Below are positions 1 to 20,236 of a stretch of 64,000 nucleotides of DNA, in pieces (position 1 is the first letter of the stretch; each line of letters starts with the position of its first letter). A program made the position numbers and the translations under genes. The DNA is taken from positions 94,134 through 158,133 of the IMG/VR virus record IMGVR_UViG_2919367315_000003, one strand, 5' to 3'. This stretch comes from a virus (Duplodnaviria > Heunggongvirae > Uroviricota > Caudoviricetes). The notes under the pieces were generated by a model. It worked only from the letters and a program-made list of their open reading frames with translations. It had not been told where the DNA came from and ran no database searches.

Positions 1-1
1 T

Positions 2-553
2 GAAGGTATACTGGGTAGAAACAGTTCTGAAATAAGAACTTTAAAAGTGGGAAATATCGATAAGGTCAATAATAAAATAAAACTAACAAACGTAGACCGC
101 TATGAAACAACAGAAAGAGAAATCATTGTTAGTGATTTTTTAATTGATGCTCTTTTAGCAGCAGATCAAGAGGAAGTGTATAAATCTAATTTTGGTGAAG
201 GCAGCAAAAGAAAAGACACTTCCAAATTAAAAGACAGTGATTATATAATAAAGAGCACAAGAGGAGAAGAAGTTAAGCAGTCATTAATAACATTTGTTAT
301 TACTAAATTTGGTGAAAAGCTGAATAGACCAAGTTTATCTCCAATCGATATAAGAAATTCAGGTATGTTAGAAATGGCAAGAAAAGAATATCTCCGTGAG
401 AATAAAAAAACTTTAGATCGTTCAGATATTCATAAGATATGTAAACAATTTAATGTTGGTTTGCGTGATGGTGGCATAATCAACAGTACAATGTATACTC
501 AAGATTTCCTCAATGAAGAAACCATAAAAAGAGTTTACCCTGAAGTAGAATAA
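2..553 (+). CDS. hypothetical protein, 5'-truncated by window edge (frame open from nt 2)
   Basis: ORF track 47..553; same frame has no stop back to window start; followed by strong terminator. Confidence 0.4.
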   Translation, partial: EGILGRNSSEIRTLKVGNIDKVNNKIKLTNVDRYETTEREIIVSDFLIDALLAADQEEVYKSNFGEGSKRKDTSKLKDSDYIIKSTRGEEVKQSLITFVITKFGEKLNRPSLSPIDIRNSGMLEMARKEYLRENKKTLDRSDIHKICKQFNVGLRDGGIINSTMYTQDFLNEETIKRVYPEVE

Positions 554-577
554 GTTTTTCTTATTCTACTTTTTTTT
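545..577 (+). terminator. rho-independent terminator (GTAGAATAAG-tttttc-TTATTCTAC + T8)
   Basis: perfect 9-10 bp stem, 6-nt loop, run of 8 T directly after stop at 553. Confidence 0.7.
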
Positions 578-590
578 ATGGAAAATTGTG

Positions 591-619
591 TTGACATCAA
601 CGAAAACGCATGATATATT
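591..619 (+). promoter_or_regulatory. sigma-A type promoter TTGACA-17-TATATT (extended TGaTATATT)
   Basis: consensus -35, 17-nt spacer, TG-extended -10; 30-bp module repeated at 3115. Confidence 0.55.
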
Positions 620-666
620 TAGGGTACAAATTCATTATATTTAATTATAAGAACGTGAGGGCTAAC

Positions 667-1308
667 ATGGAAACGGCTAAATACATAATATTTTCAATGT
701 TGGATGGTATGGCAATTTTTATTTTTGGATTTGGTATGTATTCTATAAAGCTAAGAGACTACTGGGTTCAATTTATCGTTTCAAGTCTGTGTATTTCTGT
801 AGGTACCCTCTTGTATGTGGAATACGACCTTCCGACTAGAGTTGCACCGATTGCCAATTTATTATTATTGATAATATTTCTCGTGATTTTATTTAAACTA
901 TCTCCCCTTTCATCATTGAGGATATCGGGAATAAGTTTTTTAGTGCAGATGATTTTACAAACTTTAACTGCGCTTATACTTGCAAGTACACTTAATATTG
1001 ATTTTTTTGAAACAACAAAAGAATATGGAATACTGATTCAATTCTTGGGTGACACAGTAATGGTCATCATAAGTTTGATATTAAGGAAACGATCTATCTT
1101 CTTTACAACATTACCATATCAATATACATTAAAATTCAAAATTAACACCTCGAATATAATACTTTTTATTGTGTCTCTGCTCGGTATAGCTTTAATGACA
1201 AAGCCTACTTTCAACAATATGACTTCAAGTGTAGTTTTCTGGATAGCAATATTCGTATTATTGATTCTAATAGAAAGAAGAAAGGAAATTAAAAATGAAT
1301 ATGATTGA
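667..1308 (+). CDS. polytopic membrane protein (about 6 TM), AgrC-sensor-domain-like, no histidine kinase domain
   Basis: ORF track 610..1308; start moved to ATG 667 behind GAGGG RBS because 610 overlaps promoter; hydrophobic helices throughout; first gene of agr-like cassette. Confidence 0.5.
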   Translation: METAKYIIFSMLDGMAIFIFGFGMYSIKLRDYWVQFIVSSLCISVGTLLYVEYDLPTRVAPIANLLLLIIFLVILFKLSPLSSLRISGISFLVQMILQTLTALILASTLNIDFFETTKEYGILIQFLGDTVMVIISLILRKRSIFFTTLPYQYTLKFKINTSNIILFIVSLLGIALMTKPTFNNMTSSVVFWIAIFVLLILIERRKEIKNEYD

Positions 1309-1831
1309 TCAAATAGCCGATAAGTGGAGTTGTGCAGCTAAAAGTAAATATCCTGATGAATTACCGTCACAACAAATAGTGAGATATACATTAAAATTTA
1401 TAATCTCGAATACCATTCCCATATTTATAGTATTAATTGCATCGATGCTATTAGGCATTACTAAAGAAACAGTATTTGCATTAATAGGGTTTTCATCACT
1501 TAGAATGTTTTCAGGTGGTTTTCACTTTAAATCGGCAGATATGTGCATAGTTTTTTCATCGCTAGTAATAATTTTAATAGCATTGGGAGGCAATTATTTC
1601 GAGAATTACTCTTTTGCTATGTATCTAGCCAGTGTAATATTGGTAATGATATATGCACCAAGTAAGATAGAACAGCAAACAAGAGTGAAACCGGAAAAAT
1701 TTAAATGGTTTAAAATTATATCCTTAATAATAGTTTCGCTGATATATATAATAAATATTCCAGTAATGAATTTAGCTGTTTTAGTACAAAGTCTCCTCTT
1801 GATACGCTTGAGAGGAGGTGAAAAGTTATGA
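1295..1831 (+). CDS. agrB: AgrB-family accessory gene regulator protein B (AIP-processing membrane endopeptidase)
   Basis: 178 aa, multi-TM, conserved R-x-x-SGGxH motif (LRMFSGGFHFKS) typical of AgrB; ATGA overlap with downstream agrD-like ORF. Confidence 0.6.
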   Translation: MNMIDQIADKWSCAAKSKYPDELPSQQIVRYTLKFIISNTIPIFIVLIASMLLGITKETVFALIGFSSLRMFSGGFHFKSADMCIVFSSLVIILIALGGNYFENYSFAMYLASVILVMIYAPSKIEQQTRVKPEKFKWFKIISLIIVSLIYIINIPVMNLAVLVQSLLLIRLRGGEKL

Positions 1832-1950
1832 AATTGAACAAACTTATGCTGATTGTTGGTAGTTTTTGCTCTCTGTTGGCAGTAACAGTGGTAAGCACTG
1901 CTAGTTGGACATTGATCCATGGAGAAGCAGTGCCAGAAGAATTGAAATAA
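1828..1950 (+). CDS. agrD: AgrD-like autoinducing peptide precursor (40 aa: MKLNKLMLIVGSFCSLLAVTVVSTASWTLIHGEAVPEELK)
   Basis: not in ORF track (<60 aa); GGAGG RBS 1813-1817; hydrophobic N-terminal helix, short core, acidic C-terminal tail with E-x-V-P-x-E-L resembling S. aureus AgrD DEVEVPKELTQL; immediately after agrB. Confidence 0.5.
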   Translation: MKLNKLMLIVGSFCSLLAVTVVSTASWTLIHGEAVPEELK

Positions 1951-1953
1951 TAT

Positions 1954-1998
1954 ATTTGGGGTCCCGCTCTTTCTTCTGGGTGGGGCGAGACCCCAAAT
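1954..1998 (+). promoter_or_regulatory. stable stem-loop (10-bp stem ATTTGGGGTC/GACCCCAAAT, 25-nt loop), no U-tract; possible attenuator or processing site between agrD and LytTR gene
   Basis: perfect inverted repeat read directly from sequence. Confidence 0.4.
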
Positions 1999-2017
1999 GA
2001 ATTAAGAGGTGATAATA

Positions 2018-2410
2018 TTGAAGTCAACAGACACTATAAAAGTAGTAAAAAAAATAGGTGACAAAATAGATGAAGTAGCAATTATGTTACCAGTGTCAGA
2101 AGTTCAAGGATTTAGAACTGAAAAAAAGAGCGGAAAAACAGGACAAACACGGATTGTATACATAACAGATAATGGTGAGTTTATTGATGAAACAAGAACA
2201 GAACAGACAATGCGTTTATTTGAGAACATTGAAGGATTCGTAAGAGTTGGGAGAGGAAGTATGGCCGATGTGACTAAGATTGACGAAATCGATGAAAGGG
2301 TATATGAGATATATTTTGATAAGAGTAAAAAAAGCTTTGTGGAAATCGCAGCGGTACATTTGGCAACAGTAAAAAAAATGTTACAGAGACTAAGAAACAA
2401 TAAAAAATAA
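2018..2410 (+). CDS. standalone LytTR-domain DNA-binding protein (no receiver domain)
   Basis: ORF track 2009..2410; TTG 2018 behind GAGGTG RBS; C-terminal FVRVGRGSMADVTKIDEID matches LytTR core (cf. AgrA FFRCHNSFVVNRHNIESID). Confidence 0.55.
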   Translation: MKSTDTIKVVKKIGDKIDEVAIMLPVSEVQGFRTEKKSGKTGQTRIVYITDNGEFIDETRTEQTMRLFENIEGFVRVGRGSMADVTKIDEIDERVYEIYFDKSKKSFVEIAAVHLATVKKMLQRLRNNKK

Positions 2411-2430
2411 ATGTTATTTTTGGTTTACTA

Positions 2431-2459
2431 TTGCTTATACCTTTTGGCAGTAGTATAAT
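2431..2459 (+). promoter_or_regulatory. sigma-A promoter TTGCTT-17-TATAAT
   Basis: sequence inspection. Confidence 0.4.
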
Positions 2460-2534
2460 TTGAATAAACACGAACATAGGTTCCCTAAATAGCGATTCGA
2501 CAAAAAGTGACACACTATATGGACATTTTTCCAG

Positions 2535-2555
2535 TATATTGATTAAGTCAATATA
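2535..2555. promoter_or_regulatory. perfect palindrome TATATTGA-ttaag-TCAATATA (candidate dimeric repressor operator) between two promoters
   Basis: 8-bp arms (extendable to 10 with one mismatch), 5-bp spacer. Confidence 0.35.
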
Positions 2556-2575
2556 TTTAGACATGGTGTGTAAAG

Positions 2576-2606
2576 TTGTTGCCTAATTATAGTAATCTCG
2601 TATAAT
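2576..2606 (+). promoter_or_regulatory. sigma-A-like promoter (TTGTTG/TTGCCT ... TATAAT)
   Basis: -10 TATAAT 2601-2606; imperfect -35. Confidence 0.35.
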
Positions 2607-2641
2607 AAAAGTATAGAATTCGACAGCAAGGAGATAATGCT

Positions 2642-3016
2642 ATGCAGCAAGACGAACTAATATATCGGCTTGAGATACCACAAAGAGCCACAATAATAAT
2701 AACAAAAATGAGTTTTCTTCTAAGAAGTGACTCTGACAGACAAAAAATGTTTACATTTTGCAATGATAATCCCGGCTCTGAGTATGTATTTCTCGCTGAG
2801 AAAAGAAAACAGTTGATTGACGAAGAAGGTTATAAAGACAAGAATGAATTTATTAGTGATTATAATGATAATAATATCAAGGCGCTTGAGAAATTATGTC
2901 AAGAAAAAGTTGATGGTTTTAAGTTGGCTAGATTAAAAGTAACAGATCCAGAAACATTATATAGCTTGTATGAAAAAAATAAATATTCAAATTTGCTGCA
3001 TTTAGCCTTGTCTTAG
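2642..3016 (+). CDS. hypothetical protein
   Basis: ORF track; AAGGAG RBS 2629-2634. Confidence 0.45.
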   Translation: MQQDELIYRLEIPQRATIIITKMSFLLRSDSDRQKMFTFCNDNPGSEYVFLAEKRKQLIDEEGYKDKNEFISDYNDNNIKALEKLCQEKVDGFKLARLKVTDPETLYSLYEKNKYSNLLHLALS

Positions 3017-3114
3017 ATAACCTTTGCCGAGCGTATTGGTTCGGCTGATTACATACTCCACAGATAGAGATAGAAGTTGTAAGGATGAATTAAACAAATA
3101 AATATAATGAAGTG

Positions 3115-3143
3115 TTGACTTAACGAAAACATCGTGATATATT
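3115..3143 (+). promoter_or_regulatory. sigma-A promoter TTGACT-17-TATATT, paralogous copy of the 591 promoter module
   Basis: TTGAC(T)T..AACGAAAAC..TGATATATTTA shared with 591-621. Confidence 0.5.
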
Positions 3144-3217
3144 TAATTAGCAAGGTGATTGACCTCATAAAAGAATACTTTTATCAAGATAGACAGTTAC
3201 CAAAAGGCAATACATAA

Positions 3218-3294
3218 GGGTCTTTCGTATAAGTGGTTAATACACCAATCTCATAAATTGGCTGATGCCCGTTCAAGTCGGGTGAGACCCACCA
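3218..3294 (+). tRNA. tRNA with CAU anticodon (Met, or Ile2 if lysidinylated), 3' CCA encoded
   Basis: manual cloverleaf: acceptor GGGTCTT/GAGACCC 7 bp, D-arm GTAT/ATAC with AGTGGTTA loop, anticodon stem CCAAT/ATTGG with loop CTCATAA, 5-nt variable loop, T-arm GCCCG-TTCAAGT-CGGGT, discriminator A, CCA. Confidence 0.75.
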
Positions 3295-3407
3295 AAAATA
3301 ACACACTGATATGTGTGATTATATAGATGAAAATATATTTGAAAGGCTGGGGAGGGGCATGAACAGATTTTATGACAGTGGATTTACTTAGTTTCAAAGG
3401 AGATAAA

Positions 3408-3500
3408 ATGAGAGTTATTATTTTAAAGAAGTACATACATTATCAACGTGCTTTGCACGATTATATAGATGCAACTCATTTCGCTTTGCAAAGGTGGTGA
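3408..3500 (+). CDS. small leader ORF (30 aa, MRVIILKKYIHYQRALHDYIDATHFALQRW)
   Basis: strong RBS AAAGGAGAT 7 nt upstream; not in track (<60 aa); overlaps GCTTTGCA repeats. Confidence 0.2.
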   Translation: MRVIILKKYIHYQRALHDYIDATHFALQRW

Positions 3501-3603
3501 TATGAATCAAAAATAAGTTGAGAAGTCCTCCCTTTTATGATTGATCGAAAATAGATTAATCAAATAAAAACTATTACACATAAAAGGGAGATATAAAATA
3601 CAT

Positions 3604-4716
3604 ATGGCAGATTACAAGATTAAAGTAAACAACAATCACGGTGGCAAAGAATTTAACAATGGATTTCATTTTGTGGGCAAAGTCAAACCAATTAAGGAAA
3701 AAGATAAGATCACAGATAACTGGGTAGATGTCCCGTTTTACTCAACTGAAGAAGAGGGGAAAAAGAAAGTATTTCAATTTATTATCGAAACGGCAATGAG
3801 TAATGAATTAAAAGTTAAGATTACAGGTAAAGAAAAGCCCTATGCATATCCTTACAGCAGGCAGCATAGAAAGTCAGCTAAAGTAGAGTGGAATCAAAGA
3901 TACAATAAAGACACATATCCAGATAATACATATCACCTCATTGAACCTGAATGGGATAGAATCGATAAGTTTAAAGAGATTGTAGAAAAAGACCTTTGGG
4001 TAGAAGTTAAGGGAAAATACATTCCATATGAATTTGATACAGAAGACGGCAAAACAATTAAAGGTATTTCAAGACAGATTAGTTTTGTTAATCCAATCAA
4101 AGAAGGAAAGGTTATCATTGATGGTGAGCCTCAAGATGTTAAAGTTGCTGGAAAATCCATTAATTACGTGTGCGACTTCCAATCGCCAGATTTTATTGAA
4201 GTAAATAGATTTAACATGCAAATTGGTATCAATACTACATATCAAGATAGTGAGACTGGAGATACAAAAATTAATGCAGTTGTTTTGACAAATGGAATCG
4301 AGAGATCCGAACCAAAAGATGTTGAATTGATAGTGTATCAGAAGAAAGTAGAACATGGCATTTCGATGGCTGATGCCTTCTCTTCTCTTAATACCTACGA
4401 CTTTATTGAAGTTATTGGACAAGACAACAACAGAGCAACTTTTGCTTACGTGGATATCGTAGAAGAAATTTCATCAGATGATCCATTTAGTCAAGTGGAT
4501 AGTAGTGAGAAGGTAACACGACAAGAGCGTGTAACTAACGGGGATAAAAAGGGTTTGGAAGTTATCAGTTATGTGGAAGGCAGCCTAATGCGTGAACTGC
4601 TAACAGAAGAGGAGTTCAAGAAGTCTGCTGTTTTGACAAACAATGATCCGTTTAATCAAACAGCCACCCCTTCAGACGATCCATTTGCAACCAACAACGA
4701 CGATCCTTTTGCGTGA
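3604..4716 (+). CDS. putative non-canonical ssDNA-binding protein; acidic C-terminus with repeated D-D-P-F motifs (SSB-like tail)
   Basis: ORF track; AAAGGGAG RBS; four DDPF/NDPF repeats in last 70 aa resemble SSB C-terminal DDDIPF; adjacent to RecA-like ATPase. Confidence 0.4.
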   Translation: MADYKIKVNNNHGGKEFNNGFHFVGKVKPIKEKDKITDNWVDVPFYSTEEEGKKKVFQFIIETAMSNELKVKITGKEKPYAYPYSRQHRKSAKVEWNQRYNKDTYPDNTYHLIEPEWDRIDKFKEIVEKDLWVEVKGKYIPYEFDTEDGKTIKGISRQISFVNPIKEGKVIIDGEPQDVKVAGKSINYVCDFQSPDFIEVNRFNMQIGINTTYQDSETGDTKINAVVLTNGIERSEPKDVELIVYQKKVEHGISMADAFSSLNTYDFIEVIGQDNNRATFAYVDIVEEISSDDPFSQVDSSEKVTRQERVTNGDKKGLEVISYVEGSLMRELLTEEEFKKSAVLTNNDPFNQTATPSDDPFATNNDDPFA

Positions 4717-9789: not shown

Positions 9790-10299
9790 ATGAAGAGTAT
9801 TATAAAGGCAAGAACTACTAAGAAAATTTATTATATGGAGAGAAGTCAGCCTTTAAATTGGTGGGGTTATTCTATTGGGAGCGGCGACTTTAAATATAAT
9901 GATAAATCGGATAATGATGGTCGTTTAGGATTTAAAAAGACAAAAGATTTAGAACTCGTTACACTTAAAGAAACAGACCAGTTCCATAGGCTATTAGTCA
10001 AGGGTGAAAGTATAAGTATTGAGGGAAATCATTATGAAATAGCAGAGGTTGTCCATGGGGTTGACGGGATAATGGAGTATTGGGTAGATGTTGAATATGA
10101 CGATGAGAAGAGTAGAGATAAGGCATTGAAAGAAATCGAATTAAGAGAGGCTTTTCTTGAAGGCAGAAAAGTAGAAAGTGAAAAAGTTAAACTGATAAAT
10201 ACAGATCATATAGTATCATCGGTACTGCACGAAGAGGCTACTGTCTCAAAAAAGACACGAAAAATTTTAAATAAACTTAAGAAAGCGAGATCAAAATAA
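9790..10299 (+). CDS. hypothetical protein
   Basis: ORF track; GAAAGGGGA RBS. Confidence 0.45.
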   Translation: MKSIIKARTTKKIYYMERSQPLNWWGYSIGSGDFKYNDKSDNDGRLGFKKTKDLELVTLKETDQFHRLLVKGESISIEGNHYEIAEVVHGVDGIMEYWVDVEYDDEKSRDKALKEIELREAFLEGRKVESEKVKLINTDHIVSSVLHEEATVSKKTRKILNKLKKARSK

Positions 10300-12349: not shown

Positions 12350-13243
12350 ATGTCAAAAGAAAAAAATATTGGAGCCGATCTGCACGAAATGTTGTTAAAA
12401 AGTAAGGAGCAAAGAGATAAAAATAGCAACCAAGAGCATGTGCTTGAAAAAGTGAAACGGCTATCCCTCTTACCTGATGACATTAATGCAACTATTGAGA
12501 TGGTAGCTAATTATTTTGAAGTAGACAAGGAAGCAATACATAGCTGCATAAAAGATAATCGCAAGGAATTGAGGTCAGATGGATTAAAAATACTTCGTGG
12601 AAAAGAATTAAGAGAATTTGTGATGTCCTTTAAGGACATGGCAAATTATGTAAATAGTAAAACAAGATCACTGACTATTGTCCCAAGAAGAGCCATGTTA
12701 AGAATGGGACAACTTCTCAGAGATTCAGTGATTGCAATAGAAATTCGAAATTATTTATTAGACGTAGAACAGGAAAGTCATGATGTTTCTCTCTTTTTAA
12801 CTGAATTAGATCGCAATGAGGAGAGAGATTCAACTAGACAGGGGAATAGTGAAATCAAACTTATTCTTAAGAATAAAGTTGGTGCAAGCAGTCCCAAACA
12901 TTATTCTGCTTTTTTTCTAAAAGGATATGAGGGTAGCTACAATGTTAGTAGCATAAAAGAATACAATGCACTTAAAGGTCTGCATGAAAACGCAAAGCCA
13001 TTGGATCACATGGATTCTTTGGAGCTTGCAACATACAGATTTAGAGTAGAGATGACTAAAGAGAGAATTGAAAGCGGCGATATTAGTGAATTACCAGTAG
13101 CAAATGAAATACATAAAAATATAGGAAAAAATGTGGCTGACTTAGTTGAAAGTGTCACAGGTAAGACTTTAGCTTCATTACCAATAATAAATCCCACCAA
13201 AAAACTTAAGAATTCTAATGACGACCATGATGAAGTTCGATAA
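12350..13243 (+). CDS. hypothetical protein (possible antirepressor/DNA-binding regulator-like)
   Basis: ORF track; AAAGGAGAG RBS. Confidence 0.45.
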   Translation: MSKEKNIGADLHEMLLKSKEQRDKNSNQEHVLEKVKRLSLLPDDINATIEMVANYFEVDKEAIHSCIKDNRKELRSDGLKILRGKELREFVMSFKDMANYVNSKTRSLTIVPRRAMLRMGQLLRDSVIAIEIRNYLLDVEQESHDVSLFLTELDRNEERDSTRQGNSEIKLILKNKVGASSPKHYSAFFLKGYEGSYNVSSIKEYNALKGLHENAKPLDHMDSLELATYRFRVEMTKERIESGDISELPVANEIHKNIGKNVADLVESVTGKTLASLPIINPTKKLKNSNDDHDEVR

Positions 13244-20190: not shown

Positions 20191-20236
20191 TTATTTAGTT
20201 AGTTGTACACTATAAGAACAAACGTTCTAGGAGTGT

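Follow-up and report, generated by a model that had tools for sequence, protein, structure and literature searches.

A candidate kinase-free, agr-type peptide signalling cassette beside the repressor gene of an SPbeta-like Paenibacillus phage

The window analysed in this work is a stretch of 64,000 nucleotides (nt) of a Caudoviricetes genome (IMG/VR record IMGVR_UViG_2919367315_000003, positions 94,134-158,133). Here we describe a cassette at window positions 591-2410, on the + strand, with genes for a polytopic membrane protein, an AgrB-family peptidase, an AgrD-like propeptide and a protein that consists of a LytTR DNA-binding domain. The cassette is a conserved unit whose four parts travel together, not an accident of one phage. 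It is agr-like in signal production and, in its output, like the LytTR regulatory systems (LRS) HdrRM and BrsRM, yet it fails the defining features of both. We propose that it carries out kinase-free agr-type signalling in an SPbeta-like Paenibacillus prophage, the signal passing from the peptide to the membrane protein and on to the LytTR protein, and we put the probability of this mechanism at about 0.5. The position of the cassette between a repressor gene and a gene controlled by DNA damage suggests that the peptide controls a dormancy decision.

In the proposed mechanism AgrB would cut AgrD after Ile30 and close a five-residue lactone ring from Ser26 to Ile30, after which the peptide would be released. 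The membrane protein, ORF1 (open reading frame 1), has seven predicted transmembrane (TM) segments and sits in the gene slot of AgrC, and it would be the peptide receptor. With neither a kinase nor a receiver partner, ORF1 would hold or free the LytTR protein directly, as happens in HdrRM and BrsRM. The freed or captured LytTR protein would then act on the densely conserved control region ahead of the next gene, ORF5, where there are a LexA-box promoter and a second promoter, and possibly on the cassette promoter too. In this way the density of lysogens or of phage would modulate SOS induction or the lysogeny decision, which is the role that arbitrium has in Bacillus SPbeta phages. The four genes are as follows (aa, amino acids).

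667-1308, + strand: ORF1, a polytopic membrane protein of 213 aa, putative peptide receptor that would pair with the LytTR protein; ATG start, GAGGG ribosome-binding site ahead
1295-1831, + strand: AgrB-family peptidase, 178 aa; PF04647 E=6.2e-25; contains LRMFSGGFH
1828-1950, + strand: AgrD-like propeptide, 40 aa, tail GEAVPEELK; predicted ring S26-W-T-L-I30 (nt 1903-1917)
2018-2410, + strand: ORF4, stand-alone LytTR DNA-binding protein, 130 aa, TTG start; no receiver domain

The initial annotation, made from the DNA letters alone, had called the second gene an AgrB-family peptidase with an RxxSGGxH signature, and both the PF04647 match and the sequence LRMFSGGFH bear this out. His77 and Cys84, which form the catalytic pair of S. 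aureus AgrB, are invariant in an alignment of nine cassette AgrBs, and the ratio of nonsynonymous to synonymous substitution rates (dN/dS) for this gene is 0.11-0.2. The 40-aa ORF that had been read as AgrD-like from its VPEEL tail is likewise present and under purifying selection (dN=0 and dS=0.16 against L030 and L031; related loci carry L numbers in this text), with a score on the AgrD model TIGR04223 of 16.3 bits, below the 19-bit cut-off. Its absence from related phages had been named as evidence that would count against the idea; a small-ORF script recovered its equivalent, 38-47 aa long with the ending (V/I/A/T/P)P-x-E-(L/M), in 17 of 19 cassettes searched, and inspection added that of L012.

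Counted back from the proline of VPEEL, Ser26 stands at -10, Ile30 at -6 and His31, which follows the predicted cleavage site, at -5. In S. aureus AgrD-I these positions are held by the ring-forming cysteine, the last ring residue and the first residue of the tail. The predicted product is thus a lactone with the ring S-W-T-L-I. Half of the cassette peptides compared (9 of 18, from 11 loci) have serine or cysteine at -10, accompanied in seven of the nine by histidine at -5. A second class of AgrD is also seen, with no serine or cysteine at -10, a conserved lysine at -9 and the tail S-P-x-(I/V/A)-P-x-E-L. Lysine at -9 is found in 7 of the 18 peptides. Members of the second class are seen in L001 (Abouo) 4522-4650, L002 (Emery) 4467-4583, L020, L021, L025, L026 and L027. 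This class may have another ring chemistry (e.g. a lactam) or a linear product.

The membrane protein had been described as having roughly six TM segments and the size and topology of an AgrC sensor module, without a histidine-kinase domain. Hydropathy gives seven hydrophobic segments, and the positive-inside rule predicts the N-terminus outside and the C-terminus inside, the latter being only 11 residues beyond the last membrane segment. The lack of a kinase holds, as no histidine-kinase domain was found by profile in ORF1 or 53 relatives. ORF1 has no match in Pfam or NCBIfam, its profile gave only a chance match against PDB sequences, and tblastn of ORF1 against phages found nothing. Its family is visible with profiles only, phrog_15604 being matched over the full length (E=1.7e-10). 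A profile search of 1.84 billion representatives returned 65 relatives, with no member above 229 aa or as long as a kinase; ORF1 belongs to a stand-alone family and is not a truncated kinase. Its dN/dS is about 0.15.

The resemblance to an AgrC sensor is one of size, topology and gene order, the order ORF1-AgrB-AgrD being that of agrC-agrB-agrD in phage phiCDHM1; homology to AgrC was not detected. Conservation along ORF1 is lowest in the predicted outside loops (1.0-1.2 bits) and highest in the predicted inside loops and TM1 (1.9-2.4 bits), the conserved inside loops being at residues 25-32, 78-87 and 140-158. Furthermore, L012 keeps ORF1 together with AgrD and the LytTR protein though it has no AgrB. 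From the AgrC gene position, the variable outside loops, the L012 locus and a receiver-less regulator in need of an input, we infer that ORF1 is the peptide receptor. Some cassettes have two ORF1-type paralogues in tandem, e.g. L002 (Emery) at 2547-3212 and 3280-3948, and L015 at 234-908 and 1026-1685.

The fourth protein had been called essentially a LytTR domain and nothing else, and this description stands. On its own ORF4 falls just under the PF04397 gathering score (21.1 bits against 22.6), so that a LytTR profile match, asked of it in the initial annotation alongside the one for AgrB, comes from its family, where PF04397 is matched by 12 of 13 members (best E=2e-9). An AlphaFold2 model of ORF4 has a predicted local distance difference test score (pLDDT) of 87.8 and confirms the LytTR fold. 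There is no receiver domain, because 130 aa leaves no space for one. Two loci have a tandem double LytTR regulator of 240-252 aa (L013 6304-7026 and L044 5435-6193), and a regulator that combines a receiver with LytTR (251 aa) is found only in the viral contig L040 (4957-5712), where the membrane protein is still without a kinase. Since none of the 65 ORF1 relatives is kinase-length and the regulators are LytTR-only save that of L040, a phosphorelay is disfavoured.

The proposal to look for the same four-gene block in related genomes proved fruitful. Searches seeded with AgrB gave 28 loci, 10 from Paenibacillus or Cohnella genomes and 18 from IMG/VR viral contigs. An ORF1-family gene adjoins AgrB in 28/28 of these, and a LytTR-containing regulator completes the block in all 27 that could be assessed. 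Loci seeded with ORF1 (L008-L011, L013, L015) have the order ORF1-AgrB-small ORF-LytTR, and the block is found across Paenibacillus, Cohnella and Brevibacillus phages. All cassette genes of the window are under purifying selection (dN/dS 0.02-0.2) and are therefore not chance ORFs.

The surroundings of the cassette suggest a connection with a phage switch. The elements on either side, and those that control the cassette itself, are given below.

47-553, + strand: repressor gene of the integrase fold, MrpR/SroF (YopR)-like, of which the window start leaves the C-terminal part; PF22823 MrpR_C_cat E=7.9e-9
542-580, + strand: intrinsic terminator closing the repressor operon; 13-bp stem (542-572), 5-nt loop, T-run
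591-619, + strand: cassette promoter; -35 TTGACA (591-596), 17-nt spacer, TG-extended -10 TATATT (614-619)
614-643, + strand: direct repeat TATATTTA, a possible operator; copies at 614-621 and 636-643, period 22, overlapping the -10 and the early transcribed region
1948-2004, + strand: GC-rich hairpin between agrD and the LytTR gene; -29.5 kcal/mol, no T-run behind
2431-2459, + strand: promoter right after the LytTR gene; TTGCTT, 17-nt spacer, TATAAT; spacer motif CCTTTTGGYA conserved across divergent phages
2471-2484, + strand: LexA (Cheo/SOS) box CGAACATAGGTTCC, 12 nt downstream of the -10
2497-2512, + strand: direct repeat TCGACA-N5-YGACA, a candidate operator; also in L030, L032-L039, L003 and L009
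2579-2606, + strand: second conserved promoter; TTGCCT, 16-nt spacer, TATAAT; a GTCAA box starts a fixed 32 nt upstream of the -35
2642-3016, + strand: ORF5, a 124-aa protein, candidate SOS-controlled antirepressor (positional Sar analogue) and possible output gene

In SPbeta the part of master repressor is played by MrpR (YopR) (PMC10516654). In SPbeta-like phages the repressor, there named SroF, is inactivated by a LexA-controlled antirepressor, Sar, encoded one ORF downstream of the repressor gene (10.1101/2025.11.27.690993). In L003-L010 and L029-L039 the gene immediately ahead of the cassette encodes a full-length homologue of the repressor (325 aa, PF22822 and PF22823). The order DndB-like, MrpR-like, ORF1, AgrB, AgrD, LytTR is common to twelve SPbeta-like viral contigs, 127-218 kb long, with AgrB identities to the window from 100% down to 37%. 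More generally, the relatives have a DndB-like (yopQ-like) gene and then MrpR directly upstream of the cassette, and genes for YorF and AAA_24 proteins downstream. Among named phages, the nearest to carry the DndB-MrpR pair are Perkons and Sundance, and neither has the cassette.

An ORF5 homologue follows the LytTR gene in 11 of the 12 large viral contigs; the loci with such a homologue after the cassette are L029-L039, L003, L009, L010 and L018. The LexA box is at the same place in 10 of those 12 contigs, plus L003, L009 and L010. Its core, GAAC-N4-GTTC, occurs twice in the 64 kb, the second copy being at 20216-20227. ORF5 itself has no Pfam, PHROG or PDB sequence match, and as a sequence relative of YopT/Sar it was rejected for want of similarity; by its slot and LexA box it is a candidate positional analogue of Sar. 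Because ORF5 sits in the Sar slot with a LexA box, the cassette fills the gap between the repressor and the candidate antirepressor. The direct repeat at 2497-2512 was also considered as a repeated SPBRE-like element and this was ruled out, as the repeat occurs once in the window. About 590 bp (3016-3604) separate ORF5 from the YorF-like gene; they contain no convincing ORF, a twin of the cassette promoter and, at about 3250-3300, a GC-rich stem-forming sequence; a search of the window against Rfam gave no match there or elsewhere.

The earlier remark that no aimR-like gene is visible agrees with our results, since nothing AimR-sized is found at the syntenic position and none of the large ORFs of the window resembles AimR. 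On the same contig, the 10 kb that precede the yopQ-like gene hold no ORF of at least 300 aa, and AimR is therefore absent from its usual place. Each large ORF of the window either belongs to replication or nucleotide metabolism or lacks an AimR match; not every small ORF was screened for AimR or AimP. A 384-aa protein encoded upstream in L004 was tried as AimR and rejected, having no match to PDB AimR or in NCBIfam.

A PemK/MazF-like toxin gene (L004 2703-3083) lies beside a divergent helix-turn-helix (HTH) gene on the opposite strand (L004 3123-3347). The pair is a few kb upstream of the repressor operon, and the same region is found upstream of the window in L047. Arbitrium acts via the host MazEF in SPbeta phages, so the PemK/MazF-like gene is possibly relevant.

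We infer from this position that the cassette may be an arbitrium analogue. A link to the lysis-lysogeny decision is tentative, and we rate it somewhat short of an even chance. The most far-reaching version is that a cyclic AgrD-type peptide is sensed by the kinase-less 7-TM protein, which gates the LytTR protein directly and is wired into the MrpR/SroF-antirepressor switch of a clade of SPbeta-like Paenibacillus phages that have no arbitrium; as a whole, this is doubtful.

Several observations weigh against the proposed mechanism. The structural model of ORF1, made from an 8-sequence alignment, has a pLDDT of 45.6 and is too poor for a comparison with the AgrC fold, and hhalign of ORF1 against the phiCDHM1 AgrC gave a probability of 1.9% in a comparison that is underpowered by its single-sequence template. 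The peptide core ASWTLI is unchanged while ORF1 diverges to about 30% identity, unlike staphylococcal agr, where receptor and ligand co-diversify. The gene order is the reverse of that of LRS. The cassette promoter does not have the direct repeats typical of LRS, copies of ~9 bp with an 11-13 bp spacer that lie ~10 bp ahead of the -35 and give positive autoregulation; the terminator leaves 18 nt between its T-run and the -35, too little to hold them, and the only repeat at this promoter is the downstream one that overlaps the -10. Likewise, the ORF5 control region yielded no repeat with the usual LytTR spacing (9 bp + 12 bp), and the conserved repeat there has a period of 10. Of the LRS features compared, a receiver-less LytTR protein encoded in one operon with a membrane protein is shared, and neither the gene order, the upstream repeats nor homology of the membrane protein agrees with the likeness drawn in the initial annotation. 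Finally, the same cassette is found in the apparently non-phage chromosomal contexts of L012 and L013, so its native job need not concern phage decisions.

Could the block then be host-directed cargo, a Paenibacillaceae signalling unit whose LytTR protein regulates host genes (for antibiotics, biofilm or sporulation) or a host agr-type system, and not the phage switch? A host-directed role has been proposed for the agr genes of phiCDHM1 (PMC3901668). The blocks of L012 and L013 lie amid metabolic genes, without phage markers, and homologues of MrpR, DndB and ORF5 are absent from L019-L021 and L023-L027; moreover, the slot after the repressor gene varies in related phages, as would be expected of a moron insertion. 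That said, AgrB identity falls from 100% to 37% and yet the cassette keeps its place, with the repressor gene on one side and the LexA-box promoter of ORF5 on the other, its own promoter layout conserved. As this exact place is kept across so wide a range of AgrB identity, the linkage to the switch is tighter than is usual for cargo, and we consider the host-directed explanation unlikely.

Another explanation leaves the signal in place and changes the part played by ORF1, which might be an accessory in maturation or export (an MroQ-like role) or give the producer immunity, the LytTR protein acting alone, either constitutively or by competing for AgrA-type boxes. The gene layout fits this, in that ORF1 overlaps and is coupled to agrB while a hairpin stands between the biosynthetic genes and the LytTR gene. 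So do conserved polar residues within the membrane segments of ORF1 (E/D13, Q98, Q125, N163) and the fact that no homology of ORF1 to any sensor was detected. Against it, none of the 53 ORF1-family members matches a CPBP/Abi or transporter profile, a match to an unrelated transporter family having been named earlier as a result that would speak against the cassette, and ORF1 has no conserved histidine and no metal-binding motif. Moreover, in L012 ORF1 stays with AgrD and the LytTR gene though AgrB is missing. The outside loops of ORF1 are its most variable part, which fits ligand recognition, and without ORF1 the receiver-less regulator would have no input. We therefore regard an accessory role as quite improbable. 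A decayed agr locus, with ORF1 and ORF4 as remnants of agrC and agrA and the whole block non-functional, would agree with the sizes, ORF1 being about as long as the sensor half of AgrC and ORF4 as the DNA-binding half of AgrA. It is effectively refuted by the purifying selection on every gene, by the short length of all members of the ORF1 and ORF4 families, and by the conservation of the block across phages of three genera.

The terminator and near-consensus sigma-A promoter reported ahead of the cassette are both there. The terminator is kept in related prophages, and the promoter, which agrees with the consensus at 11 of 12 positions, ranks first among 22 promoter-like sites of positions 1-3700. 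This promoter layout recurs in L003, L004, L008, L009, L010 and L018, and the period-22 repeat is also found in L003, L004, L008 and L018. The initial annotation described four co-oriented, translationally coupled genes; co-orientation is correct, and the overlaps of ORF1 with AgrB (14 nt) and of AgrB with AgrD (4 nt) are consistent with coupling. It is limited to three genes, however, because ORF4 is set off by a 67-nt spacer with the hairpin and has its own ribosome-binding site, AAGAGGTG. A strong hairpin of other sequence is found at the same spot in L003, L004, L008, L009, L010 and L012, and that at 1948-2004 may be an attenuator or a transcript-stability element.

Some of the promoter sequences are repeated along the window. 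The cassette promoter has a near-twin at 3115-3144, and the 12-mer TCATTATATTTA, seen at 632, recurs at other promoter regions. As TCATTATATTTA/TAAATATAATGA it has four exact copies (632, 3099, 9891 and 29297; the 9891 copy is inside the ORF at 9790-10299) and one-mismatch copies at 2548 and 41359, most of them at promoter-like sites. It may mark a phage promoter family or be a repeated SPBRE-like operator. The AACGAAAAC motif, common to the 591 and 3115 promoters, was considered as an operator and dropped, as it is not conserved in L003 or L004.

The phage had been placed on a Bacillus SPbeta-like backbone. ORF1 is 100% identical to an NCBI protein of Paenibacillus polymyxa, and on this match the host is Paenibacillus polymyxa, not Bacillus. 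The SPbeta-like part of the claim holds, judging from the MrpR-like and YopQ/DndB-like genes and from the YorF-like genes in relatives. The window matches IMG/VR UViG_2938655777_000006 (202 kb) at 100% and is part of that contig. When the cassette and 24 kb of the window were compared by megablast with 50,697 phage records, no near relative came up. Other genes of the window encode PolIII-alpha, NrdE, NrdF, NrdD, a ligase, a primase and a helicase. At 12350-13243 there is an ORF that weakly matches DinD, DNA damage-inducible protein D (NCBIfam NF008573, E=2e-13, well below the cut-off). A reading of the cassette as a defence system was dropped, as PADLOC had no match for any cassette protein.

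If the proposed wiring of the LytTR protein is correct, the cassette would be a second, independently evolved system of phage-phage peptide communication for lysis-lysogeny or induction. It would, moreover, give the LytTR regulatory systems their first identified ligand; with the ligand encoded in an LRS-like operon, the question of the LRS signal would become directly testable. Furthermore, cyclic-peptide signalling would then run without a two-component phosphorelay. The cassette is a concrete candidate for non-arbitrium communication among large temperate phages that infect bacteria of soil or bacteria associated with plants.

Cassettes of the same make-up are carried by Brevibacillus phages. 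Abouo gp44-gp47 (also Davies, and Emery gp53/54-57) have the same order in the lysogeny region: a membrane protein of ~222 aa, AgrB, an AgrD-like peptide of ~40 aa and a LytTR-only protein of ~122 aa. By profile the families are the same (phrog_15604, phrog_10353, phrog_15081), and the membrane proteins align over their full length. However, pairwise identity is only 17-30%, the phages are small (45-58 kb) with an ordinary integrase/XRE switch and not one of MrpR type, and the AgrD has lysine at -9 and no serine or cysteine at -10. The fourth gene is annotated as a 'peptidase', as in Abouo, or as hypothetical, and is LytTR-type in UniProt for Davies. AgrB, AgrD and kinase-less membrane proteins were briefly noted in three related phages, without the LytTR gene (Hargreaves 2014). 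The initial annotation's claim of an undescribed circuit thus fails for these three components and stands for the four-gene unit with its LytTR gene; no description of that unit, or of its place in MrpR-type phages, was found in the literature searched, the coverage of which is incomplete.

Compared with staphylococcal agrBDCA, the cassette has an AgrB with the catalytic His and Cys; it has neither the kinase fusion of AgrC nor the receiver of AgrA that accompanies LytTR there. Its order is sensor-B-D-regulator, its predicted nucleophile is serine (for a lactone) and not cysteine, and divergent P2/P3 promoters are not seen. The agr3-type agrC-agrB-agrD genes of the Clostridioides phage phiCDHM1 are likewise phage-borne, near the lysogeny module and in the same order for the first three genes (PMC3901668). 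There, a full AgrC kinase of 453 aa is encoded and no regulator gene, whereas here the kinase is missing and a LytTR gene is present. The LRS share with the cassette a receiver-less soluble LytTR protein, co-transcribed with a polytopic membrane protein and working without phosphotransfer (HdrRM, BrsRM; PMC6193735). In S. mutans-type LRS the regulator gene comes first in all cases (Zou et al. 2018, PMC6193735) and that of the membrane inhibitor, whose deletion activates the system, second; here this is reversed, with AgrB and AgrD in between. LRS have no known ligand, and ORF1 shows no match to the known LRS membrane families.

Arbitrium together with SroF/MrpR-Sar offers the parallel in genome position. 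Like the proposed system of the cassette, it is a secreted phage peptide system beside an integrase-fold master repressor with a LexA-controlled gene downstream. In chemistry and receptor the two are unrelated. Arbitrium uses a linear hexapeptide that is imported to a cytoplasmic tetratricopeptide-repeat receptor, AimR (~380 aa), whereas in the cassette the peptide would be cyclic and its sensing would take place at the membrane; neither AimR nor AimP was detected here. Each of the parts, namely AgrB/AgrD synthesis, a membrane-held LytTR protein and peptide-controlled dormancy, is known, and in the literature searched it is their combination that is new as a system.

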